A stretch of 46,739 nucleotides of DNA from Methanocella sp. (GCA_050261115.1 JBLNCY010000038.1:1-46739); one strand, 5' to 3'. Counted from the stretch's first letter, positions 11,410-26,388 are shown. Numbers and translations are program-made. The notes: generated by a model not told the origin, from the letters alone.

Positions 11410-13080
11410 ATGGATACATTGAATCGTTGGTCCTCTAAAAAACCCTTAAAGTACACCCTCTACCTCTCCGCGATTGCCATATTTTTTGTATTAATTCTGA
11501 TTCCTCCCATAATTGGGATCATAACCAAGGCTGGCTCCTTGGAGGCGGTTTTTACTGAGCCAGAATTGATGAATACTGCGATGAATGCTATTTTCGCTTC
11601 ATTCGTCATAGGTCTAGTGGTTGCTGCCCTTGACCTATTAGCAGGTGTGCCGTTGGCTTGGCTTATTGCCCGAGGCGGAAAATCCCGTTGGCTAAATGTA
11701 CTGGATACACTGGCTGATCTTCCATTTGTTGTTCCAACCGCTGCTTTGGGCTATTCACTTTTACTATTTTGGAACCAAGCCCCTGCGGATCTTTTTGGTC
11801 AACCCTTCATCTCTCCTGGTTGGGCGCTGGTAATGGTTCTGCACTTTACCTTCTCGTTCCCTGTGGTCGTACGTGTTGTTGTCGGTTCCCTGATGGACTA
11901 CAAGATGGAATATGAACGTGCATCGCGAACACTTGGTGCTCCACCGTTGACTGCTTCAAGAACGGTAACTTTCCCAATCATAAAACCCTCCCTGATTGCA
12001 GCCTACACTCTAGCGTTTGCACGTTCGCTCTCAGAAACTGGCGCAACATACCTCGTTGCTGCCGGAGTATTCTTAAATGGGCCCGTCTTTATCCAAACCG
12101 TCAGCGACCAATTTAAGGCTGGTACCATATCGCAGGGCACGTATGAAGGCGCAACTGTTTTTGCCAGCTTAATCCTAATTGTTGTGTCGCTTGCTTTATT
12201 CGTCCTGATACGGTTTGTTGGAAAGAAGATGAAACTGCCGTTCTGTCAGGGCTTACCTGCTTTCGAGAAGAAACTTAGCTATAAAAAAGGCGCCTGGACC
12301 CGTAACGGTGTAGCTCTGGGGGTCTTTTTCATTATCGTCCTTATTCCTTCCATGTATGTGGCGCTCCCCGCTTTCCAAGCTATAGGGACTGGGTCGACCT
12401 TTGTTGAAGCGTTTACTGGTGCTGGGGTCTGGGAGAGTTTTTGGGGTAGCCTTGGTCTTTCCTATGTCTTAGCAGCTATAGTGACTGTTTTAGGTATGGC
12501 ATTGGGGTTGCCGATGGCTATTTTGATTTCTCGTAAAATCTTTGGCACTTGGCCCTCTGTAATCCTGGACACATTGATTAATGTCCCAATTATTGTGCCC
12601 TCCATCGCTTTAGGCGTCTCATTGCGATTCTTCTGGTCCAACCTTTCGGGGGTTCCCGAATTCCTGCTTTTGATTTTTGCCCACTTGGCAATTACTTATC
12701 CCTATTTTGTTAGGTCAATGACTGCTGCTATGGAGCGCATAAGCGTAGAAATGGAAGAAGCGTCCAAAACGCTGGGTGCCAAACCTTTAACGGTGTTCAA
12801 AAGTGTAGTTTGGCCGATAACAAAGTATTCGATTCTTTCAGGTGCAATCATCGTCTTTACACGTAGCGTAAGCGAAACAGGTGCAAGTTTGGCGGTAGCT
12901 CAACAACTGCAAACTGCTCCAGTTTTGATAGTAAACTGGGTTAATTCCGTGAGAGGTACTGCATCTGCCATCCCAGGCGTGGATTCGTTAACTGTCAGTT
13001 TAGCCTGTGGCTTGCTGATTCTATTCAGCTTCGTTATACTGCTTGCGCTGAGACTTTTAACTAGAAAAGAGAGAAATTAA
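11410..13080 (+). CDS. ABC importer permease with two fused TM domains (iron/thiamine/oxyanion class)
   Basis: Two EAA-loop motifs 'YERASRTLGA' and 'MEEASKTLGA', and two 'R-S-x-SETGA' motifs. Confidence 0.88.
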   Translation: MDTLNRWSSKKPLKYTLYLSAIAIFFVLILIPPIIGIITKAGSLEAVFTEPELMNTAMNAIFASFVIGLVVAALDLLAGVPLAWLIARGGKSRWLNVLDTLADLPFVVPTAALGYSLLLFWNQAPADLFGQPFISPGWALVMVLHFTFSFPVVVRVVVGSLMDYKMEYERASRTLGAPPLTASRTVTFPIIKPSLIAAYTLAFARSLSETGATYLVAAGVFLNGPVFIQTVSDQFKAGTISQGTYEGATVFASLILIVVSLALFVLIRFVGKKMKLPFCQGLPAFEKKLSYKKGAWTRNGVALGVFFIIVLIPSMYVALPAFQAIGTGSTFVEAFTGAGVWESFWGSLGLSYVLAAIVTVLGMALGLPMAILISRKIFGTWPSVILDTLINVPIIVPSIALGVSLRFFWSNLSGVPEFLLLIFAHLAITYPYFVRSMTAAMERISVEMEEASKTLGAKPLTVFKSVVWPITKYSILSGAIIVFTRSVSETGASLAVAQQLQTAPVLIVNWVNSVRGTASAIPGVDSLTVSLACGLLILFSFVILLALRLLTRKERN

Positions 13081-13121
13081 CATGATAACCAATAATAACA
13101 TCAAAGGAAGAGGAGACTAGA

Positions 13122-14228
13122 ATGCCAGACGTAAAGGTAGTAAACGTCGTAAAGAAATACGGGAAAGTCTACGCACTAGACCACGTAAGCTTAACAGTAC
13201 ACGATCAAGAATACTTCTCACTCCTCGGCCCAAGCGGCTGTGGCAAAACCACCCTTCTACGCCTCATCGCAGGATTAATCAACCCAGATGGCGGCGAAAT
13301 ATACATCGGCGATCGCAGAGTAGACAAAGACCCACCTGAGGATCGCGACATCGGCTTTGTATTCCAAACATTCGCCCTGTTCCCCCATATGACTGCATGG
13401 AATAACGTCCTCTATGGGCCCAAGGTAAAGAACTATGACACTAAACAGTCTGAAACCATAGGTCATGAAGTTCTGGAGCTAGTTAAACTCAGTGAGCGAT
13501 TGGGTGCATATCCAAGTGAACTTAGCGGCGGTATGATGCAGAGAATCGCTGTCGCCCGGGCTTTGGCTGCAGGAGCTAAAACGCTACTTCTAGATGAACC
13601 GCTCGGGCAGCTAGACGCGAAGGTTCGAAATGATATTAGGTATGAGATTCGTAGAATGGCAAAAGACCTCAAAATCACAGCTATCCATGTTACTCACGAC
13701 CAAGCGGAAGCCATGTCAATATCTGACCGAATCGCTGTCATGAAAAAAGGCAAAATCGTGCAGGTCGGCACACCTAAGGAGTTGTATATGCATCCGAACA
13801 GTCTGTTTGTGGCCTTCTTTATTGGTGAATCTAACCTTTTGGAGGGTTACGTTACAAAGCTTGAGGGTCAGGATGCCGAGATTGAGTTGCGTGAAGGTTA
13901 TCAGATCGAGGCGTTTAATGAGCGGGACATAAAGGTTGGAGATCGTGTGGTCTTGGCTATTCGTCCTGAGACTTGTGAAATGAAGTTGGGGTTTGTTGGT
14001 GAGGGTTATGACGGCTTGTTTGGTCAGATTGAGAAAGCTACTTTTGAGGGTACGATTGTCCGTTATGAGATTCGGCTTGTGAATGGTGATCGGTTTGTGA
14101 TTAATCGGCCTTCTCTTACCGAGGATTGGTTTAAGGTTGGGCAGGAAGTTACGATTACTTATCCTAAGGAGAAAGCGCATCTGTTTCCGTATCCACCTAA
14201 TGGTTTGAGTGATGAGATATCAGTTTAA
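13122..14228 (+). CDS. ABC importer ATP-binding subunit (PotA/CysA/FbpC-like, C-terminal TOBE domain)
   Basis: Walker A GPSGCGKT, signature LSGGMMQR, Walker B LLLDEP, H-loop VTHDQ. Confidence 0.93.
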   Translation: MPDVKVVNVVKKYGKVYALDHVSLTVHDQEYFSLLGPSGCGKTTLLRLIAGLINPDGGEIYIGDRRVDKDPPEDRDIGFVFQTFALFPHMTAWNNVLYGPKVKNYDTKQSETIGHEVLELVKLSERLGAYPSELSGGMMQRIAVARALAAGAKTLLLDEPLGQLDAKVRNDIRYEIRRMAKDLKITAIHVTHDQAEAMSISDRIAVMKKGKIVQVGTPKELYMHPNSLFVAFFIGESNLLEGYVTKLEGQDAEIELREGYQIEAFNERDIKVGDRVVLAIRPETCEMKLGFVGEGYDGLFGQIEKATFEGTIVRYEIRLVNGDRFVINRPSLTEDWFKVGQEVTITYPKEKAHLFPYPPNGLSDEISV

Positions 14229-14574
14229 ACAAGAATTCGATGTTATGTTCGATGCTTTCGACAATTTAGATAAAACCATGAAATTCCACACTTTTATGGT
14301 CTCAAAATTTAAATGCAAGTGCAACGCTTTAAAACAAATAACTCGGGGTAGCATGGGGAGAGAAATAGCGTGGGAGAGACTATGCTAGGTTGTTTCCAAA
14401 AAAACGCCAGTTACACATCAAACACAACCTTATCGGGCACTAATCAATCGTCTAGTCACCATGCAGATACACTTAAATACGCTTTCACAGACGGTTTGGA
14501 ATATAACAAGTGCAAGCTTGTCTCTAACTTTGGGGCAGCATTAATGACCAAGGAAAACACGGAGAGACCTAACC

Positions 14575-14904
14575 ATGATTATTGAAGCCCTACTCGCGTT
14601 CCTCTTAATCTTCCTCTCAACAGTACTTATCTACGCCATAGGCAAAAAGGCCGCGCCAAAAACCACAATAGGCGAAAACGAACAAGCCGCCTATGCCTGC
14701 GGAGAAAAAGTCTCCTTCCAAGGCCTAAAAATCAACGTCTCACTATACAAGTACCTAATCTACTTCGTAATTTTTGACTCATCAGTACTGGTACTTGCCT
14801 TCGCCTCATTCACCATGGGCATAACCAACCCACTCCTACTCATCCTCTACCTCGGCATAATCCTCGCCGCAGGCATAGTCCTGCTAGACGGAGGCAAAGA
14901 CTAA
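14575..14904 (+). CDS. nuoA: Complex I-like hydrogenase subunit A (NuoA/FpoA-like)
   Basis: 3 TM, 'YACGE' loop, 'YLIYFVIFD'; first gene of the operon. Confidence 0.82.
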   Translation: MIIEALLAFLLIFLSTVLIYAIGKKAAPKTTIGENEQAAYACGEKVSFQGLKINVSLYKYLIYFVIFDSSVLVLAFASFTMGITNPLLLILYLGIILAAGIVLLDGGKD

Positions 14905-15371
14905 TGGCAGACACAAAAACCTGGGCCCGCGTAAAATCCCCCTGGGTCCTCCACTTCAACTCAGGCGCCTGCAACGGCTGCGACATCGAAATCGTCGCCC
15001 TACTCACACCAAAATATGACGTCGAACGCTTCGGCATAAAACTCGAACCCTCCCCCCGACATGCCGACATCCTACTAGTAACCGGCTGCGTCACACAACA
15101 ATGCGCAGAACGCCTAAAACGCGTCTACGACCAAATGCCCCAGCCTAAATTCGTCGTCGCCATAGGCGCATGCGCCTGCAGCGGCGGAGTATTCGCAGGC
15201 AACTACAACACCCTAGGCGGCGTAGACAAAGTAATCCCCGTATCCGCATACATACCCGGATGCCCCCCACGCCCCGAAGCAATCATCGACGGCTGCGTCA
15301 AACTATTAAACGCAATAAACCCCCCTAAACAGAAAAAAGCTGTGGAAGTAAAACAAGATGTCAAACAATAA
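14904..15371 (+). CDS. nuoB: Group 4 [NiFe]-hydrogenase small subunit (NuoB homologue)
   Basis: 'GACNGCDIE' (hydrogenase-type CxxC, not the tandem CC of NuoB), 'SPRHADILLVTG', 'GACACSGG', 'PGCPPRPE'. Confidence 0.92.
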   Translation: MADTKTWARVKSPWVLHFNSGACNGCDIEIVALLTPKYDVERFGIKLEPSPRHADILLVTGCVTQQCAERLKRVYDQMPQPKFVVAIGACACSGGVFAGNYNTLGGVDKVIPVSAYIPGCPPRPEAIIDGCVKLLNAINPPKQKKAVEVKQDVKQ

Positions 15372-16932
15372 CATAGATGTTTTAGCTATTCTTCAAGCAA
15401 AATTCGGCGATAAAATACGGATCCAAAACGGCGTCACTGGAACCGCCGCTATCGTAGCAAACAACGGTCTCCATTGTGACGTTTTGGCAGCCATGATTGC
15501 AGCTGACGAGAAAACAGGTATTGTCGCCATCACGGGTTTAGACTTCGGCGAAACCCTAGGCGTGTACTATCATGTTCGGACATCCAAATCCTTCTTTACC
15601 ATAAAAGCAGAAGTACCAAAAGCAGAACCTAAAATCAAAACCGTAACCGATATTCACCCAGGCGCACGCTTCCACGAGCTTGAAGTAACCGACCTCTTCG
15701 GTGTAGTGTTTGAGGGTAACGAGTTTGATGGGCACTTTGTGCTCTCTGAAAACTGGCCCGACGGCGTCTATCCTCTGAGGAAAGATGTGGATCCCTCCAA
15801 AGTTAAACTTGTCCCCACACCCGAACGGGAAGCTAACAAACCCGCCGAGGGACGACAAGTAAAAATCATCATTGGGCCGCAGCATCCGGCGCTGTTGGAG
15901 CCCGAAAAGTTCTCTGTAACCGTTGATGGTGAAACAGTCACAAAGGTAGAGCCAAGAATCGGCTATGTCCACCGCGGTATTGAGAAGACAACTGAATCCC
16001 GAACTTACCTCCAAGACACCTACCTAGTCGAGCGCGTCTGTGGAATCTGTAACCCAGCGCATGCTTACGGGTTTGTTGGGGCCGTAGAAAAGATCCTAAA
16101 ACCTGACGTTCCTGAGCGGGCACAGTACCTACGGGTAATTGCCTTGGAACTTAACCGCCTCCACAGCCACCTCCTAGTGTTGGGTCATGCAGGCTTAGAG
16201 ATCGGTTATGAAACAATCTTCCAGTACTTCTGGCGCGACCGAGAACCAATAATGGATCTCATCGAATTAACCAGCGGCAACCGCGTATACGGCTCACTTA
16301 TCACAGTCGGCGGCGTCCGACGCGACATCACCCCCGAGCAGGTACCGAAAATCAAATCTGTCCTAGACGACCTCAAAAGCAAGGTGCCGTTCTACAGAAA
16401 AATCTACCTCGACGAACCCACCCTACGCCTCAGAATGAAAGATGTCGGTGTCCTTAGCCGCGAAGATGCCCTAAAACTATCCGTGGTCGGCCCCATAGCA
16501 AGAGGATCCGGCGTCGACATAGACGTACGCAAAGACCTCCCCTATGCAGCATACGGCGACATTCCATTCAAAGAAATCGTTTATCCGGACGGTGATGTTT
16601 GGGCCAGAATGAATGTGCGTATGGATGAAGTTGAAGAAAGCATCAAAATCATCGAGTACGCCCTTGACCACATGCCCTCCGGCCCAATCCAGGTGGATGT
16701 CGCAAGAAGAGTGCCGGCAGGCGAAGCGGTCTGCAGCTTAGAAGCCCCAAGAGGTGAACTCTTCTACTACGTCAAGAGTAACGGCACCGACAAGCCCGAC
16801 CGCGTCAAAATCCGCACCCCCACGTTTGCTAACATCCCGGCATTCCTAAAAACAGCCATCGGAGAAAGCATAGCTGACGTGCCCTCCAACTTTGTCAGCT
16901 TAGACCCATGCTTCTCATGCACAGATAGATGA
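15358..16932 (+). CDS. Group 4 [NiFe]-hydrogenase large subunit, fused NuoC+NuoD (HycE-like architecture)
   Basis: C domain 'ELEVTDLFGVVFEG...WPDGVYPLRKD'; D domain 'GPQHP', 'GYVHRGIEK', L1 'ERVCGIC', L2 'DPCFSCTDR' at the C-terminus. Confidence 0.93.
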   Translation: MSNNNIDVLAILQAKFGDKIRIQNGVTGTAAIVANNGLHCDVLAAMIAADEKTGIVAITGLDFGETLGVYYHVRTSKSFFTIKAEVPKAEPKIKTVTDIHPGARFHELEVTDLFGVVFEGNEFDGHFVLSENWPDGVYPLRKDVDPSKVKLVPTPEREANKPAEGRQVKIIIGPQHPALLEPEKFSVTVDGETVTKVEPRIGYVHRGIEKTTESRTYLQDTYLVERVCGICNPAHAYGFVGAVEKILKPDVPERAQYLRVIALELNRLHSHLLVLGHAGLEIGYETIFQYFWRDREPIMDLIELTSGNRVYGSLITVGGVRRDITPEQVPKIKSVLDDLKSKVPFYRKIYLDEPTLRLRMKDVGVLSREDALKLSVVGPIARGSGVDIDVRKDLPYAAYGDIPFKEIVYPDGDVWARMNVRMDEVEESIKIIEYALDHMPSGPIQVDVARRVPAGEAVCSLEAPRGELFYYVKSNGTDKPDRVKIRTPTFANIPAFLKTAIGESIADVPSNFVSLDPCFSCTDR

Positions 16933-16944
16933 TAGGTGACAGAC

Positions 16945-17949
16945 ATGAGCCTCGTAATCGACCCAATGCTGATCTTTAGAGTACTCGTTTTCCCAGGATT
17001 CACTTTCATCCTTTTCCTAACACTCTTCTGTGACTGGGTAGAACGCAAACTAGAAGCACGCATACAGAACCGGGTCGGCCCCATGGTCGCGGGACCTGCC
17101 GGCATACTTCAGCCCCTCGCCGACTTCATTAAACTCTTAACAAAAGAAGACATCGAACCCAGAGACACCAAAAAACTAGTCTTCCGCATAGCCCCCTTGG
17201 CGGCTTTTAGCGTCATGGTTCTGGCACTGTGTTTTATACCCATCGACGGCGCAAGCGTGCTCTCAACAGGTGGCTTCAACGGCGACTTAATCATTATACT
17301 CATCTTCGCGACGGTGGCGAACTTTTTGCTCTTTTTAGCCGGCTGGGCTTCAGCTAACCCCTATGGCACCATCGGCTCTGCGCGTGTCTTAACCCAATTC
17401 TTAGGCTACGACATCCCCCTGTTCCTGCTGGCATTGACGCCTGCCTTCATAGTTGGAAGCCTAAGCATCTTTGAAATCGCCTCCTTTGCCTGGCCAGCCA
17501 TAATACTGGCGCCTTGGGCATTTGTACTATTCATAATCACCATGCAAGCTGAACTAGAACGGGACCCCTTCGATGTACCTCACTCAGAATCCGAGGTTGT
17601 CGGCGGCTTAGAAACAGAGTACACAGGCGCCAAACTCGCCTTCCTACACTTAACACGTGACGTACAAGTTGTATTCGGCTCCGCATTGGTAGTTACGCTC
17701 TTCTTGGGCGGCAGCAATGGCCCCGTATTCTTCGGTTTAGACTGGTTCTGGCACACGCTTTGGTTTGTGCTAAAGCTCCTCGTAGTCGTTGTGATTTCAG
17801 AGTACATTACAACAGTTGTAGCGCGTCTCCGTATCGACCAGGTCTTAACAGGTAACTGGAAGATACTGCTACCTGCAGCGATCCTGACGTTAATGGCGAC
17901 TGTTGCATTAGTTACTTGGGTCTATCAACCCTTAGGCATCGGAGTGTAA
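16945..17949 (+). CDS. nuoH: Complex I-like subunit H (NuoH/EchB-like)
   Basis: 'ERKLEARIQNRVGP', 'LQPLADFIKLLTKE', 'RDPFDVPHSESEVVGG...EYTG'; AGGTGA RBS favours ATG 16945 (GTG 16936 is the alternative). Confidence 0.92.
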   Translation: MSLVIDPMLIFRVLVFPGFTFILFLTLFCDWVERKLEARIQNRVGPMVAGPAGILQPLADFIKLLTKEDIEPRDTKKLVFRIAPLAAFSVMVLALCFIPIDGASVLSTGGFNGDLIIILIFATVANFLLFLAGWASANPYGTIGSARVLTQFLGYDIPLFLLALTPAFIVGSLSIFEIASFAWPAIILAPWAFVLFIITMQAELERDPFDVPHSESEVVGGLETEYTGAKLAFLHLTRDVQVVFGSALVVTLFLGGSNGPVFFGLDWFWHTLWFVLKLLVVVVISEYITTVVARLRIDQVLTGNWKILLPAAILTLMATVALVTWVYQPLGIGV

Positions 17950-17954
17950 ATTTA

Positions 17955-18401
17955 ATGGCAGACAAGAAATCAAAATCGCGGATATCACCAATATTCAAAC
18001 GGGCGCTTTCGCATCTGTTCACAAAGCCCGCTACAAGCAAATACCCCTTTGTGAAGCCTAACCTGCCCCCTGACTCCCGCGGGAAACTCGTCTATGAAAT
18101 CAAAGCATGCAACGAAATAGACTTTGAATGCGGTGAAGACTTCCGCTTTGACATTAAAGCCATGCGAGGTTCCAACTGTCGAGTCTGCGAACGCGACTGC
18201 CCAGCGCATGCAATCACCATTGTTGAGGTTGAGGGTAAACAGCGTCCCCAAATCGACTTAAACAGATGCATTTTCTGCAGTCAATGTGTTGATAGCTGCC
18301 CAAGAAAGGCGATAACGATGTCAGACTTTTTTGAGTTAGCTACAACCGACAAGAATGCATTGGTGATGAAGCCAGAGTATAAAGAAAAATCGGGTGCCTA
18401 A
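17955..18401 (+). CDS. nuoI: 2x[4Fe-4S] subunit I (NuoI/EchF-like) with an insertion
   Basis: 'PATSKYPF...RGK', 'CRVCERDCP', 'CIFCSQCVDSCP'; ATG 17955 follows the nuoH stop. Confidence 0.9.
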   Translation: MADKKSKSRISPIFKRALSHLFTKPATSKYPFVKPNLPPDSRGKLVYEIKACNEIDFECGEDFRFDIKAMRGSNCRVCERDCPAHAITIVEVEGKQRPQIDLNRCIFCSQCVDSCPRKAITMSDFFELATTDKNALVMKPEYKEKSGA

Positions 18402-18402
18402 A

Positions 18403-18867
18403 ATGATTGAACTGATTATTGATATCTTAGCCGTCGGATTAATCGTTTCAGCGATTCTCGCCTTGTTCCTCGATGAAGTGGTTTACTCTGTTACCGCCTT
18501 AGCAGTGACCTTCTTTTGCATAGCGTTTATCTTCATATTAAGCGGCGCTTTATACGCGGGCATATTCCAGTTCACAATATCCATAGGTACCCTTGCAGTT
18601 CTGTTTCTGTCTGGTGAAATGCTTGGCGAGAAGCCAAATCGTAAATCCTCACCTGCACGCATAGGCGGCCTAATCGGCGCAGGTGTGCTGCTCTCTCTGC
18701 CCGCGATTTTCCTATCGGTTTCAGGCACCAGCAATGTTGGTGCAGATGTCCAGTTCGGCGAGGCCCTCTGGAGCCTTCGAGGAGTTGATGTTGTACTTCA
18801 AGCCCTTGTCATCTTTACTTTGGCCTTGGGCATTGGCATCGTCTTGTATGAACGGAGGAAGAAATAG
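18403..18867 (+). CDS. nuoJ: Complex I-like subunit J
   Basis: Hydrophobic ~155 aa, 'GIFQFTISIG', position between I and K (GTG 18394 is an alternative start). Confidence 0.75.
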   Translation: MIELIIDILAVGLIVSAILALFLDEVVYSVTALAVTFFCIAFIFILSGALYAGIFQFTISIGTLAVLFLSGEMLGEKPNRKSSPARIGGLIGAGVLLSLPAIFLSVSGTSNVGADVQFGEALWSLRGVDVVLQALVIFTLALGIGIVLYERRKK

Positions 18868-19182
18868 ATGGACTTCGTCATTTTAGCCATTATTATGCTC
18901 ATTATCGGCATCTACGGTCTGTTGACTAACCGTCAGCTGCTAAAAGTTTTCATATCCATAGAGTTGATCGCGACGGCTGCTACTTTGAACTTTATCATGC
19001 TGGCGACTCCTCAAGCTATGGGTGAAGCACTGCTGATTTTAGCGTTCTCAGTAGACACAGCAGTCAGCGCAGTAATCTTGGCGTTGCTTGTCATCGTTTC
19101 TAAGCGATACGGTACAAGTGACCTCTCAAAGATCGTTGCAAAGATGCAGGAACATGAAAAAGAGGAAGAGGTTGAAGCTTAA
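18868..19182 (+). CDS. nuoK: Complex I-like subunit K
   Basis: 'IGIYGLL...KVFISIELI...LNF', 3 TM. Confidence 0.85.
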   Translation: MDFVILAIIMLIIGIYGLLTNRQLLKVFISIELIATAATLNFIMLATPQAMGEALLILAFSVDTAVSAVILALLVIVSKRYGTSDLSKIVAKMQEHEKEEEVEA

Positions 19183-21128
19183 TGATACTTGAAGAATTCT
19201 CTGCATGGTTCGTCTGGGTTATCCCACTCATCGCAAGCTTATTCGTTCCAGTTATAGCTAAGTACAGCGAGAGAGCCCGCAACTACTATGTAATCGCTAT
19301 AATGGGTGTTGTTGCGGCTCTTGCAGTTTCATTAATCCCTGGCGTCTGGTTTGGCGAGGGCGAGGCAGCTTACTACACTATTAGCTGGCTACCAAGCTTA
19401 ACGGGCGATGCCGGCATAACCGCAGGCGTCTGGGTAGATTCGCTTAGTGTACTATTCACGTGTCTTGTTGCCTTCTTTGGTGTAATTATCGCTGTTTACT
19501 CGCAGGGCTATATGAAAGGCGAGCAAGGCTTAACCCGATACTACTACCTCTTGTTGCTCTTCATTGGCTCCATGATTGGCCTTGTCATCTCCGATAACCT
19601 GTTACAGTTATTCATCTTCTGGGAAATGGTCGGTTTATGCTCCTATGCGCTCATCTCGTTCTGGTACAAGAAACCCGAATCCATTCACTCTGGTGTCAAA
19701 GTTTTCATAATGACCCGCATAGGTGACATCTGCCTGCTTGCAGCAATCGGCATCATGTTCCTAATGTTTGGCACCCTTAGTTTCCACGGCATAATCACAG
19801 GCATCGAGGGGGCAACAGTTGCTGGAACGCTTGACACTGGTTTACTGACAATTGCAGCCTTCTTGGTCTTGGGTGGTGCAGTGGCAAAATCCGCGCAGTT
19901 CCCGCTCTTCACATGGCTATACAGCGCAATGGAAGCCCCCACATCCGTCAGTGCTCTCTTACACGCAGCCACCATGGTCAAAGCAGGTATCTATCTACTA
20001 TCAAGATTCATTCTAATCTTCTCAATCGCACCCACACTGATGGCGGCACTTAGCGTTGCATGGTTCCCAACCATCGCTTGGATCGGCGTTATAACCGCCT
20101 TCATTGGCGCATCACTGGGTCTCATGACGACCGACATAAAAGGCGTCCTCGCGTACTCCACCGTCAGCCAAATCGGCTTCATGATGGTAGGCTTAGGCGT
20201 TGCACTTCATGGCGCCGAATCCATCGGCTGGTTCGGAAGTCTCTTCCACATGGTAAGCCACGCGTTTTTCGAAGGGCTCGGATTCCTCCTTGCAGGTGGT
20301 ATCATACATGCACTCGGAACCCGAGATATGCGCCTAATGGGTGGACTCAGAAAAGCCATGCCCATTACTTTCGGATTAATGGTTATAATGATCTTAACCA
20401 CCAGCGGTTTGCCTCCGTTTGCAGCCTTCTTCAGTAAAGGTCTCATCCTAGAAAGTGTCATGGAACTTGGCACAACCGCAGGATTAATCCAAACTGTAAT
20501 CCTCTTCGCAACCACTGCAATCACCTTCGCCTACTGTGTACGCATGTTCAGCTTAGTCTTCATGGGCAAACCATCACTGCACTTAGAGAAAATCCACATT
20601 CACGAGTCACCAAAAATTATGCTGATTCCCGCCGCCGTCCTCGCCGTCTTCTGCATCATCTGGGGCCTCTCCGAAACCGTAGTGGTTAACTTTATGCATT
20701 TAGAACTTGAAATCACGTTGCTTGAGGCCTTCACAACAATAGAGTTCCCAATATTCATGGCTTTGATTGCCCCCGTCTTTGTACTTGCCTACTGGAGCTA
20801 CTACAAAGGCTTCCAGGGCATCCGAAACGTAGCGGCAGGCAAAAACCCGCTTACAACACTGCTAAACCACAAGTACTTCATAGATGACCTCTACTACGGC
20901 ATTGCTAAAGGCATAAACAAGGCCTCGGAAGGACTCACCCGCTTTGAAAACTCTGTCTTTGGCAGAGGACCCGACAGAATCGGTGAAGACGTAGGCCGAG
21001 CAGCAGAACCCGGAAACGCAACGACGCTCAAGAAGGGCCCCTCAGACAGCTTCCGTAACTACGTGGCAGCCGCAGTTGTCGGCTTCATATTAATCGTGAT
21101 ATTAATCGTGTTAACGGTTGGAGTGTAA
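19182..21128 (+). CDS. nuoL: Antiporter-like subunit L (NuoL/FpoL)
   Basis: 'FIFWEMVGLCSY', 'KSAQFPL...AMEAPTSVSALLHAATMVKAG', 'LAYSTVSQIG', C-terminal 'KYFIDDLY' lateral helix. Confidence 0.93.
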   Translation: MILEEFSAWFVWVIPLIASLFVPVIAKYSERARNYYVIAIMGVVAALAVSLIPGVWFGEGEAAYYTISWLPSLTGDAGITAGVWVDSLSVLFTCLVAFFGVIIAVYSQGYMKGEQGLTRYYYLLLLFIGSMIGLVISDNLLQLFIFWEMVGLCSYALISFWYKKPESIHSGVKVFIMTRIGDICLLAAIGIMFLMFGTLSFHGIITGIEGATVAGTLDTGLLTIAAFLVLGGAVAKSAQFPLFTWLYSAMEAPTSVSALLHAATMVKAGIYLLSRFILIFSIAPTLMAALSVAWFPTIAWIGVITAFIGASLGLMTTDIKGVLAYSTVSQIGFMMVGLGVALHGAESIGWFGSLFHMVSHAFFEGLGFLLAGGIIHALGTRDMRLMGGLRKAMPITFGLMVIMILTTSGLPPFAAFFSKGLILESVMELGTTAGLIQTVILFATTAITFAYCVRMFSLVFMGKPSLHLEKIHIHESPKIMLIPAAVLAVFCIIWGLSETVVVNFMHLELEITLLEAFTTIEFPIFMALIAPVFVLAYWSYYKGFQGIRNVAAGKNPLTTLLNHKYFIDDLYYGIAKGINKASEGLTRFENSVFGRGPDRIGEDVGRAAEPGNATTLKKGPSDSFRNYVAAAVVGFILIVILIVLTVGV

Positions 21129-21132
21129 AACA

Positions 21133-22746
21133 ATGACGCTACCCCTATTACTCTTAGTCTTCGCGATAACCTCCATATGTATCCCACTTGTCTACCTCGT
21201 AGGCAAAAAATCAGCCAAAGCCGCAGCCTTCTTTGTTGCGGGTATTTCAGCATTAAACATGGCGCTTGTCGCAGGCACCATACCAACTATAATGGAAAGC
21301 GCCTCACATCGATATGTAGAAACCTACACTTGGATTCCAACAATCCTCAACACCGAATTCACCCTATTCACCGACGGCATCAGCGCCTCCATCGCACTCA
21401 TTAGCTTAGTGCTGGTCTTCGTCGCCTCCATATACTCAATCAACTACATGGCAGGCAAAAAGAACCTCGCCGCATACTACGCCCTACTCTGCATGCTTAG
21501 CGTCGGCTTAATCGGCGTATTCCTAACCAGCAACCTAATCCTGTTCTACTTCTGCTGGGAACTCATGCTCGTCCCCGCCTACTTCATCGTCGGCGAATGG
21601 GGCTACCGCAACAGCTACAAACAAGCCCTAAAACTCTTCATATTCACCCACGCAGGCGCAGTCTTCGTATTACTCGGCATCGCAGCAACCTACTGGGTAA
21701 GCGGCTCCACCGACATGTTCACCGCCCAGCAAGCATTAGCCACCGCAGCCAGCTCAGACATAGCCAAATGGATACTCCTCGCCCTAACAGGGGGGTTCGC
21801 CGTAAAGATGGCTGTTTTCCCCGTACACATGTGGCTACCCGACGCACACTCAGAAGCTCCCGCCCCCATGTCCGCACTACTCAGCGGCGTCATCATCAGC
21901 GCAGGAGCCTACGCAATAATACGCATGTCCTTTGGAATGGTTTTCCCAGCCGTCGGATCATCATTCGGAGTTAGCTTCTTACATGCGCTCTCAATCATAG
22001 GTGTAGTAACCGCCTTCTTCGGCTCACTAATCGCCCTTGTCGCAACTGACATTAAGCGTGTCATTGCGTACTCAAGCATCGCTCACATGGGCTACATCAT
22101 GTTCGGCCTCTCACTGTTCCCGGCGGCGCTTGCAAGCGGAAGCGTTGTAGCCTTAGCCGCTGCTCCCGCCATCGCCATCGTAGGCACCATACTGCATATA
22201 ATTACTCACGCGGCAAGCAAGGGCCTCTTCTTCCTCACCGCAGGAGGAGTAATGCATCAAACCGAAGAAAGAGACATACGCAAAATGGGCGGCTTAGCAA
22301 GCAAAATGCCCTTCTCAACAGTCTCAGGCATGATTGCGGCCCTAAGCATCGCAGGCGCACCGCCCCTAGCATGCTTCATAAGCGAATTCCTACTGTTTGT
22401 GGGTGCATTCCAAATAATCTCCGTCGATAGCTTCTACATTATACCTACCGCTGTTATGCTCGTTGCCACCGTGTTCTCTTTGGCCTACGCGCTAAGATTC
22501 ATCTCAAAAGTTTTCTTAGGCCGAGCCCAAGGCGAACCCGAAGTCATAGATGAGCACGCTGGGCACGGTGCAGACGCATCTCCCGCGCCAGCCGTCGAGC
22601 ACGCCGAGCCTGGCCACACGATTGTGGACATACCTAACTACATGAAGGTCGCACTCGCAATCCTTGTGGTCCTTGTAGTGTTAATCGGTATTTACCCGAC
22701 GTTCTTTATGCAGCTAATTCAAACAGTTACCTTCGGAGGCATCTAA
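21133..22746 (+). CDS. nuoM: Antiporter-like subunit M (NuoM/FpoM)
   Basis: 'WELMLVP', 'KMAVFPVHMWLPDAHSEAP', 'KRVIAYSSIAHMG', 'FISEF'. Confidence 0.92.
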   Translation: MTLPLLLLVFAITSICIPLVYLVGKKSAKAAAFFVAGISALNMALVAGTIPTIMESASHRYVETYTWIPTILNTEFTLFTDGISASIALISLVLVFVASIYSINYMAGKKNLAAYYALLCMLSVGLIGVFLTSNLILFYFCWELMLVPAYFIVGEWGYRNSYKQALKLFIFTHAGAVFVLLGIAATYWVSGSTDMFTAQQALATAASSDIAKWILLALTGGFAVKMAVFPVHMWLPDAHSEAPAPMSALLSGVIISAGAYAIIRMSFGMVFPAVGSSFGVSFLHALSIIGVVTAFFGSLIALVATDIKRVIAYSSIAHMGYIMFGLSLFPAALASGSVVALAAAPAIAIVGTILHIITHAASKGLFFLTAGGVMHQTEERDIRKMGGLASKMPFSTVSGMIAALSIAGAPPLACFISEFLLFVGAFQIISVDSFYIIPTAVMLVATVFSLAYALRFISKVFLGRAQGEPEVIDEHAGHGADASPAPAVEHAEPGHTIVDIPNYMKVALAILVVLVVLIGIYPTFFMQLIQTVTFGGI

Positions 22747-22747
22747 C

Positions 22748-24256
22748 ATGGTCACCATAACTGATGTAATCCTGCCCATATTCACCCTCATAGTCGCAGC
22801 CCTACTAACCATCCCCATCTTTAAGGTAATCCGCAAAAGCGGCCACAAAACCGCGCTCTCATTGGCATGGTTTATTGTGGTCTTTGCCGCCGCCGCATTG
22901 ACTGTCGCAAACCTCACAATATCCTACTACAGCGTAGCTGACCCATCCACTCTTAACTTGACCCTTGAAGGCACCGCAGACGCTGCAATAGCCACCTCCT
23001 TCCTAATCGACGCCCTATCAATCTACATGGCTATCATAATCGTCGCAGTAGCCGCAGTCGTAGTCGTTTACACGGTCTTCTTCGTTAACACCGCTGACCG
23101 CCCAACAGACCGCTACCTTGCAATCATGCTCCTACTAACCGGTGCACTAATCGGCGCAGTACTCGCAGGCGACCTCTTAACCTTCTTCATATTCTGGGAA
23201 GCCGCAACAGCAGCCGCAGCATTCCTTATGATGTACCGCAAAAACGCATTCAGCCTCAACGCCACCCTAAAATACCTAGTTATGGTCATCATCGCCTCAG
23301 CCTTCGTCTTGCTTGGTCTCTCAATCGTGTACGGCTTAACCGGCACCCTAAACTACATCGCACTAAGAGACTCAATAGGCGCATTAGTAGGCGTCGACCG
23401 GACTCTGCTAATCATCTCATTCGTCTTCATCGCCGCTGGCTACGCGATTGAAGCCGCCATCGTACCCTTCCACTTCTGGCTACCCGACGCATACACCGCC
23501 GCATCCGCACCCTCAGCCGCGTTCCTCTCAGCGCTAGTAGATCAAGGCAGCTACTACATCATAATCAGAATCTTACTCTTCATAATCCTGCCACCCTCAG
23601 TGGGAGGCGCATTTGACTGGACACTTATGCTTGCAGTCATGGCCGCCCTAACCATGATAGTTGGCAACATCTTTGCCCTAATACAACACAACATCAAACG
23701 CATGATCGCCTACATCTGTGTCGCAGACGTCGGCTACAACCTCATCGCCATCACCAGCGCAACCGAACTTGGCTTAGCAGGCAACATGTACTTCTTCCTA
23801 ATCGGCGGCTTAACCACTGCACTCGCATTCATGGCAATCGGCATAATGAACGCCAAAGGCTTCCGTACACTTGACGACTTTGCAGGCGTAGGCAAAAAGA
23901 TGCCCTGGACCAGCCTGGCACTTGTCTTTGCAGGCCTAAGCTTTGCCGGTGTCCCACCCTTAGGCGGCTTCATGGCCAAATACCTCGTGTTCACCTCAGC
24001 AGTCACCGTGGACTTAACTTGGCTGGCAATCATCGGTGTCCTCACCAGCGTACTGCAGACCGCCTATATCTTCCGCTTGGTAAACGTCATGTACGGTAAA
24101 CCCGCTGCAGATCCCAAAGCAATCCTTGAGGACAAGCGTATCTTGATCCCCATATTCATCTTGGTTGGGGCGATCTTTGTATTCGGCTTGTTCCCAGACT
24201 TGGTATTGCAGCTGATTAACCCCATAACCAGCCAACTTCCCTGGGTCGTACCGTAA
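22748..24256 (+). CDS. nuoN: Antiporter-like subunit N (NuoN/FpoN/MrpD-like)
   Basis: 'FWE', 'LKY', 'VPFHFWLPDAY', 'NIKRMIAY', 'GVPPLGGFMAKY'; last gene of the operon. Confidence 0.88.
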   Translation: MVTITDVILPIFTLIVAALLTIPIFKVIRKSGHKTALSLAWFIVVFAAAALTVANLTISYYSVADPSTLNLTLEGTADAAIATSFLIDALSIYMAIIIVAVAAVVVVYTVFFVNTADRPTDRYLAIMLLLTGALIGAVLAGDLLTFFIFWEAATAAAAFLMMYRKNAFSLNATLKYLVMVIIASAFVLLGLSIVYGLTGTLNYIALRDSIGALVGVDRTLLIISFVFIAAGYAIEAAIVPFHFWLPDAYTAASAPSAAFLSALVDQGSYYIIIRILLFIILPPSVGGAFDWTLMLAVMAALTMIVGNIFALIQHNIKRMIAYICVADVGYNLIAITSATELGLAGNMYFFLIGGLTTALAFMAIGIMNAKGFRTLDDFAGVGKKMPWTSLALVFAGLSFAGVPPLGGFMAKYLVFTSAVTVDLTWLAIIGVLTSVLQTAYIFRLVNVMYGKPAADPKAILEDKRILIPIFILVGAIFVFGLFPDLVLQLINPITSQLPWVVP

Positions 24257-24309
24257 CCCACCCCCATTTCTTTTAGATAATTTCTCTGTCTGTAGAGTTT
24301 TGCGCTATT

Positions 24310-24316
24310 TTTATAA
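24310..24316 (+). promoter_or_regulatory. TATA box of a leaderless mtnP-apt transcript
   Basis: TTTATAA 25 nt upstream of ATG 24342. Confidence 0.6.
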
Positions 24317-24341
24317 GCCAAACGCTCGCCTTCTACTATTC

Positions 24342-25133
24342 ATGCAAGTTGAAATTGGAGTTATCGGCGGAACCGGTCTATATGACCCCAAATTACTCAA
24401 GAATATACAGGAAATCACAGTTGAAACACCCTACGGCAAACCCTCAGACGCCCTCTTAATCGGCGAATTAAGCGGCAGAACCGTAGCGTTTCTACCAAGA
24501 CACGGAAAACTACACACCATACGCCCAACCGACATAAACGTCAGAGCAAACATCTGGGCGCTCAAACGGATAGGCGTAAAACGTATCTATGCAACCTCCA
24601 CGGTGGGTTCGCTTCGAGAGGATTACGCACCCGGCGATATGGTTTTTGCAGACCAATTTATTGATCGAACAACTAAACGTGAACAATCCTTCTATACCCT
24701 TGCTGAGGGGAAAGTTTGCCATATCTCTCCCGCGGAGCCCATGTGCCCTGACCTTCACCAAACCGCTATAGAAGCAGCAAAAACCCTAAACTTAAAGCAT
24801 CACCCAACAGGCACCTATGTCTGTATTGAGGGGCCTCGGTTTAGTACAAAAGCGGAGTCGCGTATGTATCGGCAATGGGGTGCTGACATTATAGGTATGA
24901 CTATGGTTCCCGAAGTCGTGTTAGCAAGGGAAGCTGAAATCTGCTACACAAACATCTCCACAGTTACTGACTATGACTGCTGGAAGGACCACAACGTATG
25001 CGTCGATGACATCGTTGCGGTTATGAAAACGGGGATTGAGAACGTTAAGAAAATCATCGCAGAAGTTATCGCTAAAACTCCCAGCACCCAGAGCTGTAAA
25101 TGTAATTGCGCTTTGAATGGCGCTTTTGCTTAG
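24342..25133 (+). CDS. mtnP: S-methyl-5'-thioadenosine phosphorylase
   Basis: 'IGVIGGTG', 'TPYGKPS', 'FLPRHG', 'IEGPRFSTKAES', 'GMT', 'VTDYDCW'. Confidence 0.93.
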   Translation: MQVEIGVIGGTGLYDPKLLKNIQEITVETPYGKPSDALLIGELSGRTVAFLPRHGKLHTIRPTDINVRANIWALKRIGVKRIYATSTVGSLREDYAPGDMVFADQFIDRTTKREQSFYTLAEGKVCHISPAEPMCPDLHQTAIEAAKTLNLKHHPTGTYVCIEGPRFSTKAESRMYRQWGADIIGMTMVPEVVLAREAEICYTNISTVTDYDCWKDHNVCVDDIVAVMKTGIENVKKIIAEVIAKTPSTQSCKCNCALNGAFA

Positions 25134-25145
25134 AGGTTGAATTAA

Positions 25146-25736
25146 ATGAACAAGACCGATAGAGTGGCAATAAACCTAAACATCAACAAAATCAGCTTAA
25201 ACGAAAAAATAAATCTGAAAAGTAGCATTCGTAGAATTCCCGAATTCAAAGGCGTAGTTTTTTGGGATATTACTACGTTACTTAAGGACCCTGTTATATT
25301 CAAAGAAGCCATCAAGCGACTAGCTAACTATTATCGCGATAAAAAAATCGATGTTATCGTCTCTAACGAGGCACGCGGATTTATTATCGGCGCGCCCCTT
25401 GCATACGAGTTAGGCGTAGGCTTTGTTCCCATCCGCAAAAAAGGCAAACTACCCTACAAATGCCTAGACTATACCTACACGACAGAATACAGCACTGATA
25501 GCATCCAGATCCATGAAGACGCTATCGAGAAGGGCCAAAACGTCCTAATCGTCGACGACTTGCTTGCGACAGGCGGAACCGTCAAGGCTAACGTGGAAAT
25601 GGTTGAGAAACTGGGAGGAAACGTTATTGGCTTAGGCTTCCTAATCGAGCTGGAATACCTTGCCGGCCGAAAAGCATTAGGCAACAAATATGACGTGTTC
25701 TCGTTAGTAAATTACAAGACGCCAAACGACGTCTAA
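25146..25736 (+). CDS. apt: Adenine phosphoribosyltransferase
   Basis: 'FWDITTLL', 'EARGFIIG', 'IRKKGKLP', 'IVDDLLATGGT'. Confidence 0.93.
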   Translation: MNKTDRVAINLNINKISLNEKINLKSSIRRIPEFKGVVFWDITTLLKDPVIFKEAIKRLANYYRDKKIDVIVSNEARGFIIGAPLAYELGVGFVPIRKKGKLPYKCLDYTYTTEYSTDSIQIHEDAIEKGQNVLIVDDLLATGGTVKANVEMVEKLGGNVIGLGFLIELEYLAGRKALGNKYDVFSLVNYKTPNDV

Positions 25737-25751
25737 ACAATTTTTTGTTTT

Positions 25752-25906
25752 GGGCTTGGCTTATAGAAAGCATGAGTCAAGCTTCCATTCCTCCACTTCC
25801 TCCCAGATGGCGAAAAAACGTAATATGAATGGGCAACCACCGCTTTCGTCATGCTTTCTGCAGTCTAAAAAGCGGTTTTTCGCCAAGCCCCAGCTTTTTC
25901 AAGCTG
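25752..25906. other. Intergenic segment with multiple nested and competing inverted repeats (candidate structured RNA or MITE relic)
   Basis: Perfect stems of 9, 11, 6, 10 and 8 bp plus a terminal 6-bp hairpin within about 155 nt. Confidence 0.4.
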
Positions 25907-26020
25907 CACGATAAACTATTGCCCACAGAGGTTATATCAATTTGTTGTTGTGGAAGGGTAGCAACTTAGATTTAATACTCTTTTTGGGCAAAATAGATAA
26001 TCAAATAGGAGATTGATTCA

Positions 26021-26326: not shown

Positions 26327-26388
26327 TTCTTAGTTTGGGGTTTGTTATCGCTTCTTTTACGTAAGGTTATGTTGAGAAAAAATTTAGG

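Follow-up and report, generated by a model that had tools for sequence, protein, structure and literature searches.

An operon for Hfo, a predicted group 4 [NiFe] hydrogenase with the core subunit set and gene order of complex I

The window, meaning the whole 46.7-kb stretch of DNA that was analysed, carries at 14575-24256 (+) a series of nuoA-B-CD-H-I-J-K-L-M-N homologues, identified by ORF calling and by Pfam and NCBIfam searches. The ten ORFs all lie on the + strand, with neighbours abutting or overlapping, and account for eleven core homologues because C and D are fused. Each ORF gave the expected Pfam family, including three Proton_antipo_M matches, in agreement with the gene order listed in a preliminary description of this DNA, and NCBIfam returned the fitting Nuo family for nine of the ten and none for A. 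The features are:

14308..14313, +: TATA-like TTTAAA, a weak candidate for the archaeal promoter element of the operon (sequence reading)
14575..14904, +: NuoA/FpoA-like membrane subunit, 109 aa (Pfam Oxidored_q4, 24.4 bits, cut-off 23.3)
14904..15371, +: small subunit B, 155 aa, hydrogenase type, predicted carrier of the proximal [4Fe-4S] cluster (Pfam Oxidored_q6, 5.8e-35)
15358..16932, +: fused CD, 524 aa, NuoC-like domain and [NiFe] large subunit (Pfam Complex1_30kDa, Complex1_49kDa, NiFeSe_Hases)
16039..16062, +: L1 motif CGICNPAH, with Ni-Fe ligands C228 and C231
16903..16929, +: L2 motif DPCFSCTDR, with Ni-Fe ligands C518 and C521
16936..17949, +: NuoH-like membrane subunit, 337 aa (Pfam NADHdh, 7.8e-85)
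17916..18401, +: NuoI-like 2x[4Fe-4S] subunit, 161 aa from TTG 17916 (Pfam Fer4_7 and others)
18394..18867, +: NuoJ-like subunit, 157 aa (Pfam Oxidored_q3, 1.5e-11)
18868..19182, +: NuoK-like subunit, 104 aa (Pfam Oxidored_q2, 4.5e-14)
19182..21128, +: NuoL-like antiporter-like subunit, 648 aa, with C-terminal extension (TIGR01974 NDH_I_L over its full length, 443.3 bits, cut-off 407.5)
21118..22746, +: NuoM-like antiporter-like subunit, 542 aa (TIGR01972 NDH_I_M, 315.4 bits, cut-off 263.8)
22748..24256, +: antiporter-like subunit in the NuoN position, 502 aa (closest to Mbs/Mbh H subunits)

An RNA-library contig (X13) starts at 14337, about 25 nt 3' of TTTAAA, which is only a hint of a promoter since the ends of RNAs cannot be read from contigs. 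For I, the start codon is more likely ATG 17955, giving 148 aa, and its relatives are 145-154 aa long. An A ORF lies 5' of B in related loci too. A Pfam search of the operon and 45 further ORFs of the 46.7-kb window found no NuoE/F/G, FrhB/FpoF, FpoO, formate dehydrogenase or CODH gene, consistent with the absence of input modules and of formate and CO dehydrogenases described earlier. The window also contains an H+-PPase gene (33609-35858).

The four Ni-Fe cysteines attributed to CD lie exactly where they had been placed, in RVCGIC (residues 226-231, nt 16033-16050) and DPCFSC (residues 516-521, nt 16903-16920), and the protein ends in DPCFSCTDR, without an extension. Both motifs fit the published definitions (L1, C[GS][ILV]C[AGNS]xxH; L2, [DE][PL]Cx[AGST]Cx[DE][RL]; as quoted in PMC7886697), and alignment A1 shows no variation at C228, G229, I230, C231 and H235. 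Against solved structures, CD scores 292.5 bits with MbhL, 291.9 with HycE (residues 70-524) and 246.1 with Nqo4. Its E181 aligns with Glu21 of MbhL, and its Leu180 and Gly229 stand where Thermus Nqo4 has the quinone ligands His38 and Tyr87. The hydrogenase CxxC claimed for B is likewise present: C23-x2-C26, C90 and C120 are invariant in 35/35 relatives, and the CxxC aligns with 'CNGCDIE' of MbhJ, at a place where NDH-1 subunit K has two adjacent Cys. MbhJ is the best solved match of B (179.5 bits), compared with 138 for the top complex I/NDH-1 chain. The pair thereby has the hallmarks of group 4, a four-Cys large subunit (L1 and L2) and a four-Cys small subunit starting with CxxC, and B has this CxxC instead of the paired adjacent N2 Cys of respiratory complex I and Fpo.

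These observations bear on an alternative reading of the operon as a respiratory complex I or Fpo-like ferredoxin:quinone/methanophenazine oxidoreductase, with the cysteines as a relic. Annotation would suggest it: NCBIfam NuoD (PRK06075) matches CD at 360.4 bits, barely over the cut-off of 360, L and M exceed the NDH_I_L and NDH_I_M cut-offs, and 'NADH-quinone oxidoreductase subunit C/D' is among the public names of close homologues, together with 'Ni,Fe-hydrogenase III large subunit' and 'formate hydrogenlyase subunit 5', which bears out the earlier warning that the complex is liable to annotation as NADH dehydrogenase. The replaced quinone ligands and the CxxC of B argue against it, as does the retention of the four Ni-Fe Cys and the remaining L1/L2 residues in a D ORF in 38 of 40 related loci, the two others being a broken copy (L034) and a locus at a contig end (L062). 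In an 84-row D tree, the large-subunit phylogeny proposed earlier as a check, the window falls inside a clade that has both motifs in 51 of its 52 rows, and a 30-row clade of motif-less NuoD-type sequences stands apart from it. Moreover, MenA (TIGR00751) was not found in the 94.85%-complete genome, in a search that left aside the futalosine and other quinone routes and phenazine synthesis. A respiratory enzyme with relic cysteines is thus highly improbable.

The gene order is identical in 18 of the 40 loci taken from related genomes, and because order and motifs recur across these loci, the arrangement is not a matter of chance. C and D form one gene in the window and in every family-level relative examined, and the window D is placed in a clade with a 'Bathy6' record, near the D subunits of Methanomethylicia and Nezhaarchaeota. 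Comparison with three relatives gave dN/dS values of 0.04-0.16 for CD, H and N; for CD and close relatives the values were 0.04-0.05, at a dS that was almost saturated.

The membrane arm includes all components of a complex I-type arm, namely A, H, J, K, L, M and N, with a long lateral helix and anchor on L (the helix in a low-confidence model), and its conserved charged residues are kept. The best solved matches of H are NuoH and Nqo8 (154.8 and 154 bits; MbhM, 95), and its acidic stretch E206-E228 is conserved in 29-31 of 31 sequences; E44 and D68 of A and E32 and D63 of K are invariant in 29/29. L scores best against complex I/NDH-1 subunits, aligning with NdhF (6hum_F) over residues 8-637, and Foldseek matched it over its full length to NdhF and NuoL (TM 0.77-0.81). 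Its AlphaFold model has a pLDDT of 80.6, with the lateral part at 36-63 only and helices 566-593, 597-607 and 622-646 all of low confidence. M is about equally close to NuoM (175.9 bits) and MrpA (175.7), followed by MbhH (165.5), and N scores 174.2 bits with 6u8y_H, 163.5 with MbhH, 147.8 with NdhB and 136.8 with NuoN. Invariant charged residues are E148, K236, H261 and K419 in L (27/27), E148, K230 and E423 in M (27/27), and E151, E235 and K411 in N (23/23). Some central residues depart from those of complex I, namely the TM7 Glu of N (in place of Lys), the TM8 Ser of M and the TM11 Glu of L, which counts against the reading of the operon proposed below. In subunit I, eight Cys (C65, C88, C91, C95, C118, C121, C124 and C128, numbered from 17916) are invariant in 13/13. 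The preliminary assignment of a group 4 [NiFe] hydrogenase on a complex I-type arm is thus upheld, with B and CD matching Mbh and FHL best and H and L matching complex I/NDH-1. The proposed three antiporter-like subunits are borne out by three Proton_antipo_M genes, but not as a unique trait: FHL-2/Hyf has three as well, and thirty bacterial-labelled loci were found with three antiporter-like genes beside a Cys-retaining D.

In the 94.85%-complete genome, the hyp maturation genes, whose absence had been set beforehand as a refuting result, were found for HypA, C, D, E and F, with HypF, C and D together on contig C53, HypE nearby, and HypA adjoining an Mrp/MinD-type ATPase gene on C31. Canonical HypB (TIGR00073) was not found in the profile search of the genome; Mrp/MinD-type ATPases stand in for HypB in some archaea. 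The hyp genes are not specific support for the operon, because the other hydrogenases of the genome need them anyway: a HoxE-F-U-Y-H-like operon on C16 and an Mvh-like hydrogenase next to HdrB and HdrC. The genome further contains three POR-type genes as candidate ferredoxin sources, CdhC, the A and B subunits of an A-type ATPase, and an FrhB_FdhB-type gene on C52, with two genes between it and an F420 ligase gene. On C28 there is a second cluster, a hybrid one that we have not seen reported before; it has an intact catalytic subunit and no B gene. Contigs at least 99% identical to the operon span it in four metatranscriptome runs from four studies, labelled as anaerobic digester or bioreactor sludge; these data are contigs, which could include DNA and whose depth gives no ranking of genes.

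Judged by its sequence, the operon encodes Hfo, a membrane-bound group 4 [NiFe] hydrogenase with the 11-subunit core set and gene order of complex I/Fpo and with C and D fused. Attributes of Hfo that are found here are the eleven core homologues in order, the lack of FpoF, FpoO and NuoEFG in the cluster, and a co-occurring Hox (3d). This architecture had already been published in 2021: it is that of the Hfo of Bathyarchaeia, an Fpo-like group 4g hydrogenase of Bathy-6 whose large subunit is classed by HydDB as 4g and falls in the authors' clade 4g-6 (Loh, Herve and Brune 2021, PMC7886697). The tree position of the window D, given above, would indirectly fit such a placement. The suspicion of an earlier 'Hfo' proposal was thus well founded, since this is the same system. 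According to PMC7886697, no group 4g enzyme had been biochemically characterised, and our literature search likewise found no published biochemistry of any group 4g enzyme, as had been supposed.

The sequence shows a hydrogenase-type pair, B and CD, in which every metal ligand is retained, a subunit I with two clusters and a complex I-type arm. We infer a ferredoxin partner and ion pumping. In the proposed mechanism, reduced ferredoxin would dock on the I/CD face, and electrons would travel along three [4Fe-4S] clusters as far as the Ni-Fe site and there reduce protons to H2. In the pocket equivalent to the complex I quinone site, the chemistry would power ion export via H/A/J/K and the three antiporter-like subunits, and the enzyme would be reversible. 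In the low-H2 anaerobic digesters whose RNA libraries contain its sequence, Hfo would rather probably act mainly as a ferredoxin-oxidising, H2-evolving ion pump, and run backwards at high H2. By textbook potentials, far less energy is released when ferredoxin reduces H+ than when NADH reduces quinone. Four pumping channels working at the stoichiometry of complex I would seem more than the forward reaction can support, so that either a lower stoichiometry or the reverse mode is favoured.

The same enzyme may work mainly in reverse, with the membrane potential, generated by ATP hydrolysis or by the H+-pyrophosphatase, driving H2-dependent ferredoxin reduction that feeds the Wood-Ljungdahl pathway. 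Three antiporter-like subunits would give a high ion/electron ratio, as is favourable for this direction, and the H+-PPase gene of the window would offer a source of the potential. On the other hand, the RNA runs bearing the operon come from digester or bioreactor sludge, where H2 is usually kept low, and reduced ferredoxin could come, independently of Hfo, from bifurcation by the Mvh-like hydrogenase beside HdrB/HdrC. Reverse operation is what Loh et al. proposed, and the CdhC, A-type ATPase and Hox of the genome are the combination of the H2-using TB2 lineage (PMC7886697). The direction of the reaction cannot be read from sequence; we regard predominantly reverse operation as possible, although doubtful. 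We consider it improbable that F420H2 or NADH is the donor, through docking of the FrhB/FpoF-like C52 protein or of HoxEFU to Hfo. NuoEFG-like genes were suggested to serve the cluster of Bathyarchaeum tardum (PMC10477458), and the FrhB_FdhB-type gene does lie near an F420 ligase gene, but it is unlinked to either cluster, HoxE, F and U share an operon with their own HoxY and HoxH, and the window has no input-module gene. Besides, H2 formation with F420H2 or NADH as donor would release no energy that could power pumping.

Compared with known systems, the ferredoxin-oxidising Hfo favoured here shares its eleven core subunits and their order with complex I (Nuo/Nqo), Fpo-like complexes and NDH-1, which give the best scores for H, L and M; in those complexes D has no Ni-Fe Cys and is a quinone- or phenazine-binding subunit, whereas the window CD keeps the Cys. 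NDH-1 lacks NuoEFG and takes electrons from ferredoxin. Fpo-like complexes also lack NuoEFG and receive electrons from ferredoxin (PMC7886697). In FHL-1 (PDB 7Z0S), HycE is likewise a C-D fusion, and FHL-2/hydrogenase 4 (Hyf) has the three antiporter-like subunits HyfB, D and F (PMC7384014), but the gene order of FHL is unlike that of the window and its formate dehydrogenase partner is not in the window. Neither the NuoA-type nor the NuoJ-type subunit identified here by Pfam is among the FHL-2 membrane proteins listed from PMC7384014. Asgard complex I-like group 4 hydrogenases (PMC11291895; bioRxiv 10.1101/2024.07.04.601786), some of whose clusters adjoin Hdr or ATP synthase genes, fall on separate branches of the D tree and have C and D split; one Heimdallarchaeota-labelled locus (L138) has A-B-C-D-H-I-J-K and three antiporter-like genes, with L1/L2 intact.

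Mbh of Pyrococcus furiosus (PDB 6CFW, group 4d) provides the best solved match for both CD (MbhL) and B (MbhJ), with the same small-subunit CxxC and the same Glu in the loop ahead of the active site. Its ferredoxin-dependent H2 evolution and ion translocation may serve, by analogy, as the functional model for the operon. Mbh has a single antiporter-like subunit, and the window H is far nearer to NuoH than to MbhM. Mbh also has a Na+ module (MbhA-C and F), which is absent from Hfo (PMC7886697), and no Mrp-derived Na+ module was found in the operon, all ten ORFs matching Nuo-type Pfam families only. In the cultivated Bathyarchaeum tardum M17C, L1 and L2 are retained in the 'NuoD' of a Nuo-like cluster, which was read as Hfo by its authors; they did not find NuoJ, whereas J is present here, and raised NADH input via NuoEFG-like genes (PMC10477458), which in our genome are those of the Hox operon. 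The Hfo of Bathyarchaeia has the same ABCDHIJKLMN order, the same retained L1/L2 and a cluster free of FpoFO and NuoEFG, and likewise occurs alongside Hox (3d) and the archaeal Wood-Ljungdahl pathway (PMC7886697), the main text of which does not use the words 'fused' or 'fusion'. The operon also occurs in a record named 'Bathy6-F90' (L069), and in the D tree its CD pairs as sister with the CD of G102, which belongs to the same genus as the window. The window operon and Bathyarchaeia Hfo come from the same lineage and do not differ in any essential respect.

The complex I-shaped hydrogenase operon Hfo consists of ten ORFs, whose junctions abut or overlap by a few bases. By Pfam they read NuoA, NuoB, CD, NuoH, a 2x[4Fe-4S] protein (I), NuoJ, NuoK and three Proton_antipo_M proteins (L, M and N; 648, 542 and 502 aa), bearing out for all ten the gene order A-B-CD-H-I-J-K-L-M-N of the preliminary description; the NCBIfam assignments match for nine and leave subunit A without a family. 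L and M exceed the NDH_I_L and NDH_I_M cut-offs, and CD scores 360.4 bits with NuoD PRK06075, barely over the 360-bit cut-off. CD is a single 524-aa protein comprising NuoC, NuoD and the N-terminal part of NiFeSe_Hases (Pfam), and its C-terminus is ...TDR, without extension. The two sequences read earlier as its Ni-Fe cysteine motifs, RVCGIC (16033-16050) and DPCFSC (16903-16920), were confirmed at exactly those positions, and their full forms, CGICNPAH and DPCFSCTDR, fit the L1 and L2 definitions as quoted in PMC7886697. The I ORF is listed from TTG 17916; an alternative ATG at 17955, 6 bases past the H stop, would give 148 aa, in line with relatives. The operon and two other window genes considered here are:

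14575-24256, plus strand, Hfo operon (A-B-CD-H-I-J-K-L-M-N)
9506-9976, minus strand, flavodoxin-like gene, 4.6 kb upstream of the operon
33609-35858, plus strand, membrane H+-pyrophosphatase, 9 kb downstream of the operon

The operon is flanked on its 5' side by an ABC transporter permease and ATPase, and on its 3' side by a purine nucleoside phosphorylase-type gene, a phosphoribosyltransferase and an Lrp/AsnC-type protein. No NuoE/F/G, FrhB/FpoF, formate dehydrogenase or CODH was recovered when 29 more ORFs of the window, which include a TATA-binding protein gene, were scanned, as the preliminary description had it. The flavodoxin-like protein is a possible alternative electron carrier, and the H+-pyrophosphatase a possible second means of energising the membrane. 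A 347-bp gap precedes A, with a TATA-like TTTAAA at 14308-14313 (gap region 14229-14585). A weakly conserved 71-aa GTG ORF in this region (14370-14585) was rejected as a subunit: it has no family, and its translated similarity to the upstream regions of three relatives is 34-39%, versus about 80% identity for the neighbouring proteins.

Comparison with solved structures divides the complex between hydrogenase-like and complex I-like parts. CD matches MbhL (292.5 bits) and HycE (291.9) better than Nqo4 (246.1), and HycE aligns from CD residue 70, so the C-D fusion is common to HycE. In the alignments, Glu21 of MbhL corresponds to E181 of CD; the Nqo4 quinone ligands His38 and Tyr87 correspond to Leu180 and Gly229, and Nqo4 Asp86 and His89 to Cys228 and Cys231. 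Subunit B scores 179.5 with MbhJ, versus at most 138 with complex I, NDH-1 and Mrp-type proteins, and shares with MbhJ the stretch CNGCDIE, where the aligned NDH-1 subunit K sequences have two adjacent Cys and a two-residue gap. H, on the other hand, matches NuoH/Nqo8 (154.8 and 154) rather than MbhM (95.0), and L matches NdhF (303.4, residues 8-637), MrpA (274.9) and NuoL (259.1), with no hydrogenase-type protein among the matches listed at E <= 1e-60. M scores 165.5 with MbhH, 175.9 with NuoM and 175.7 with MrpA; N scores higher with Mbs subunit H (174.2) and MbhH (163.5) than with NdhB (147.8) and NuoN (136.8). An AlphaFold model of L from a 28-row alignment (mean pLDDT 80.6) places helices beyond the antiporter core at 566-593 and 597-607, and a last helix at 622-646, at a pLDDT of only 36-63; Foldseek aligns the model with NdhF and NuoL over 646-673 columns (TM 0.77-0.81, rmsd about 13 A).

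Of 301 genomes sampled from the class, 240 have a CD homologue at E <= 1e-60, as do 122 of the 152 with a completeness of 90% or more and a contamination of 5% or less. Among 40 places fetched from the CD matches listed in this sample, 18 have the exact A-B-CD-H-I-J-K-L-M-N order, 29 the (A-)B-CD-H-I-J-K beginning, and 38 a D ORF with both motifs, the exceptions being a broken copy (L034) and one cut by a contig end (L062). Invariant residues include the four Cys of B (35/35 relatives), eight Cys of I (13/13), E32 and D63 of K (29/29), E148, K236, H261 and K419 of L (27/27), E148, K230 and E423 of M (27/27), and E151, E235 and K411 of N (23/23); the acidic stretch E206-E228 of H is kept in 29-31 of 31. 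By the alignments and E. coli numbering, the invariant positions of L, M and N correspond to charged positions in TM5, TM7, TM8 and TM12 of the NuoL, M and N subunits. Glu235 of N would then occupy the TM7 position, where NuoL and M have Lys, and Mbs-H likewise has Glu there; Ser261 of M at the TM8 position (22/27) and Glu364 of L at the TM11 position (21/27) also depart from the complex I pattern. Compared with three close relatives, CD, H and N have a dN/dS of 0.04-0.16, at high dS. The membrane arm varies within the family: L042 and L043 (genomes G229 and G217) carry a fourth antiporter-like gene, L-M-M-N, and L027 and L028 (G166 and G154) have L and M only. In subunit I, both in the window and in its 12 closest relatives, the first ferredoxin motif is missing its leading Cys, where the translation reads Gly85, and an invariant Cys stands 20 residues upstream instead (C65 ... 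C88xxC91xxxC95); two canonical CxxCxxCxxxC motifs are present in I from Hfo operons at a greater distance and in I from the second cluster described below. C65 may be a remote ligand, or the site may hold a 3Fe cluster.

The best 120 CD homologues listed are 73-91% identical and, where named, mostly from Bathyarchaeia or Bathyarchaeota. The predicted mis-annotation as NADH dehydrogenase is found among them, with homologues named NADH-quinone oxidoreductase subunit C or D; other names are Ni,Fe-hydrogenase III large subunit and formate hydrogenlyase subunit 5. The record 'Bathy6-F90' (L069) carries the same operon, and its CD is sister to the CD of G102, which belongs to the window's genus. For a tree of D domains, 84 rows were taken from 20 class-sample loci, 31 of 80 named loci and all of the best 30 NuoD-model hits from 151 phylum genomes, ORFs shorter than 330 aa being left out. 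Thirty rows, none with a Ni-Fe motif, form one clade (SH-aLRT 86), and 52 rows, of which 51 have both motifs, form another (SH-aLRT 84); because the root is a midpoint only, no direction of evolution is claimed. The clade that holds the window (13 rows, SH-aLRT 100) consists of Bathyarchaeia sequences with a fused CD; it forms a polytomy together with further nuo-order clusters of Bathyarchaeia and Methanomethylicia- and Nezhaarchaeota-labelled D subunits. Rows L082_486 and L088_345, on branches longer than 4, were rejected as D homologues; they were kept in the tree and ignored.

Because the scan that found the 80 named loci used a pattern containing the L2 motif, the figure of 75 with both motifs carries a built-in bias, is unused as conservation evidence, and is uninformative on the frequency of motif loss. 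At least three antiporter-like ORFs lie beside a motif-bearing D in 42 of the 80, and 30 of these 42 are bacterial-labelled (L085-L136), mostly in the order X-X-X-J-K-A-B-C-D-H-I, with labels including Planctomycetota, Omnitrophota, Elusimicrobiota, Spirochaetota and others. A Pirellulales-labelled contig (L111) carries an archaeal-type A-B-CD-H-I-J-K-L-M-N operon with a fused CD 50% identical to the window's; either the contig was binned wrongly or the operon was transferred.

The genome to which the window belongs, as contig C38, measures 2.15 Mb in 66 contigs (94.85% complete, 2.21% contamination). The preliminary description pointed to hyp maturation genes as a check on the hydrogenase reading, and HypA, C, D, E and F are present: HypF, HypC and HypD are grouped on C53 with HypE nearby, and HypA is on C31, adjoining an Mrp/MinD-type ATPase, while canonical HypB (TIGR00073) gave sub-threshold matches only. 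The genome further encodes a HoxEFUYH-like hydrogenase operon (C16), an Mvh-like hydrogenase adjoining HdrB and HdrC (C51), CdhC, A-type ATPase A and B, three POR-type genes, and a stand-alone FrhB-like gene next but two to an F420 ligase gene (C52). MenA has no match in the genome, which, as a single family searched, is weak evidence against quinones.

Outside the window, the same genome (G000) contains a second hybrid complex-I-like hydrogenase cluster:

L011:6044-15622 (= G000:C28:10043-19621), H and A divergent on the minus strand, then CD-I-J-J2-K and three antiporter-like genes (487, 693 and 495 aa) on the plus strand

Its CD (523 aa, 65% identical to the window CD) has ERICGIC and DPCFSCTDR intact, its I has canonical Cys motifs, and its J is split. 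It has no B: tblastn with the window B returns only the window's own copy, the further matches of a PF01058 scan of the genome (E <= 0.1) are limited to the small subunits of Hox and Mvh, and tblastn on C28 at E <= 10 gives chance matches only. In a 41-row CD tree, the CDs of C28 and of G038, a related genome, fall inside the genus-level Hfo CD clade (13 rows, SH-aLRT 98), and the membrane subunits of both clusters resemble a more distant cluster type (L056, L060). The C28 CD derives from the Hfo CD lineage and is joined to a foreign membrane-arm type. Clusters of this second type (type 2) are distributed in six genomes checked as follows:

G000, G193 (type 2 broken), G433 and G434: both cluster types, B only beside the Hfo CD
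G038 and G432: type 2 only, B and CD adjacent

The type-2 B is thus absent in 4/4 genomes with an Hfo operon and present in 2/2 without; G434 has an additional unrelated B (47% identity) beside a CD at 32% identity. By amino acid identity the B-less copies are each other's closest relatives, and B was probably lost once rather than four times. Between two genomes the B-less CDs have a dN/dS of 0.083 at a dS of 1.9; between the C28 cluster and its relatives dS is saturated, so that no dN/dS is given for pairs with L011 except X3 against L073 (0.057 at a dS of 3.6, unreliable). In G193, of the same genus, the type-2 cluster (L034:5661-7249; G193:C6, about 628 kb) is decaying, with CD in three pieces with stop codons and H in two; the genome's Hfo operon is intact. 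It is a doubtful possibility that in G000 two different ion-translocating membrane arms use one shared small subunit, the window B; if true, this would be a natural example of the module exchange by which complex I has been proposed to arise.

The operon is present nearly word for word in 18 of 22 sequencing runs listed (10 studies), six of the 18 being recorded as RNA; among those listed, four DNA runs from a single study are a possible source of the assembly. One RNA run from each of four studies, all labelled as sludge of an anaerobic digester or bioreactor, was compared with window 11000-27000. Pieces at least 99% identical (19/20, 26/26, 22/22 and 27/28 across the four runs) cover the operon, single contigs span A to H (14337-17225), and contigs start at 14337 and 14373 and end at 24234 and 24256. 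Contigs of RNA runs may stem from DNA, and presence in RNA libraries is therefore claimed, rather than proven transcription. The higher depth of operon bins than of upstream ABC transporter bins in 4/4 runs was set aside, contig depth being unfit to rank genes.

By analogy with Mbh, the membrane-bound hydrogenase of Pyrococcus furiosus, and with ferredoxin-dependent Fpo-like and NDH-1 complexes, I would take electrons from ferredoxin and pass them through three clusters to the Ni-Fe site, where proton reduction in the former quinone pocket would be coupled, reversibly, to ion export through the membrane arm. The main rival is operation in reverse, with the membrane potential driving ferredoxin reduction by H2 for acetogenesis, as favoured by Loh et al. 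(PMC7886697). For a digester organism, the forward mode seems the more probable.

The preliminary description's mention of an 'Hfo' already proposed proved correct: Loh, Herve and Brune named it and described its architecture in 2021 (PMC7886697). Their paper covers its motifs, places it in HydDB class 4g, notes that FpoFO is absent and that Hox occurs in the same genomes, and says that none of the 4g enzymes has been characterised. Hfo is also reported in a culture, of Bathyarchaeum tardum (PMC10477458), and a literature search on Hfo and 'Fpo-like hydrogenase' found nothing beyond these two Bathyarchaeia papers. The architecture is thus already known and the window is no new kind of system; it adds one more genome, presence in RNA libraries from digesters, residue-level detail, and a B-less hybrid paralogue that provides a lead on modularity. 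Hfo is widespread, its hosts are abundant, mostly uncultured archaea of sediments and digesters, and its routine naming as NADH dehydrogenase distorts metabolic reconstructions. Among related systems, Asgard archaea are reported to have group 4 hydrogenases that resemble complex I and include a lateral helix (PMC11291895; bioRxiv 10.1101/2024.07.04.601786), and FHL-2 to have three antiporter-like subunits (PMC7384014). Of the [NiFe] hydrogenases, Hfo comes closest to complex I in its set of subunits and their gene order, and is therefore well suited to studying how proton reduction gave way to quinone chemistry and what number of ions a hydrogenase is able to pump.
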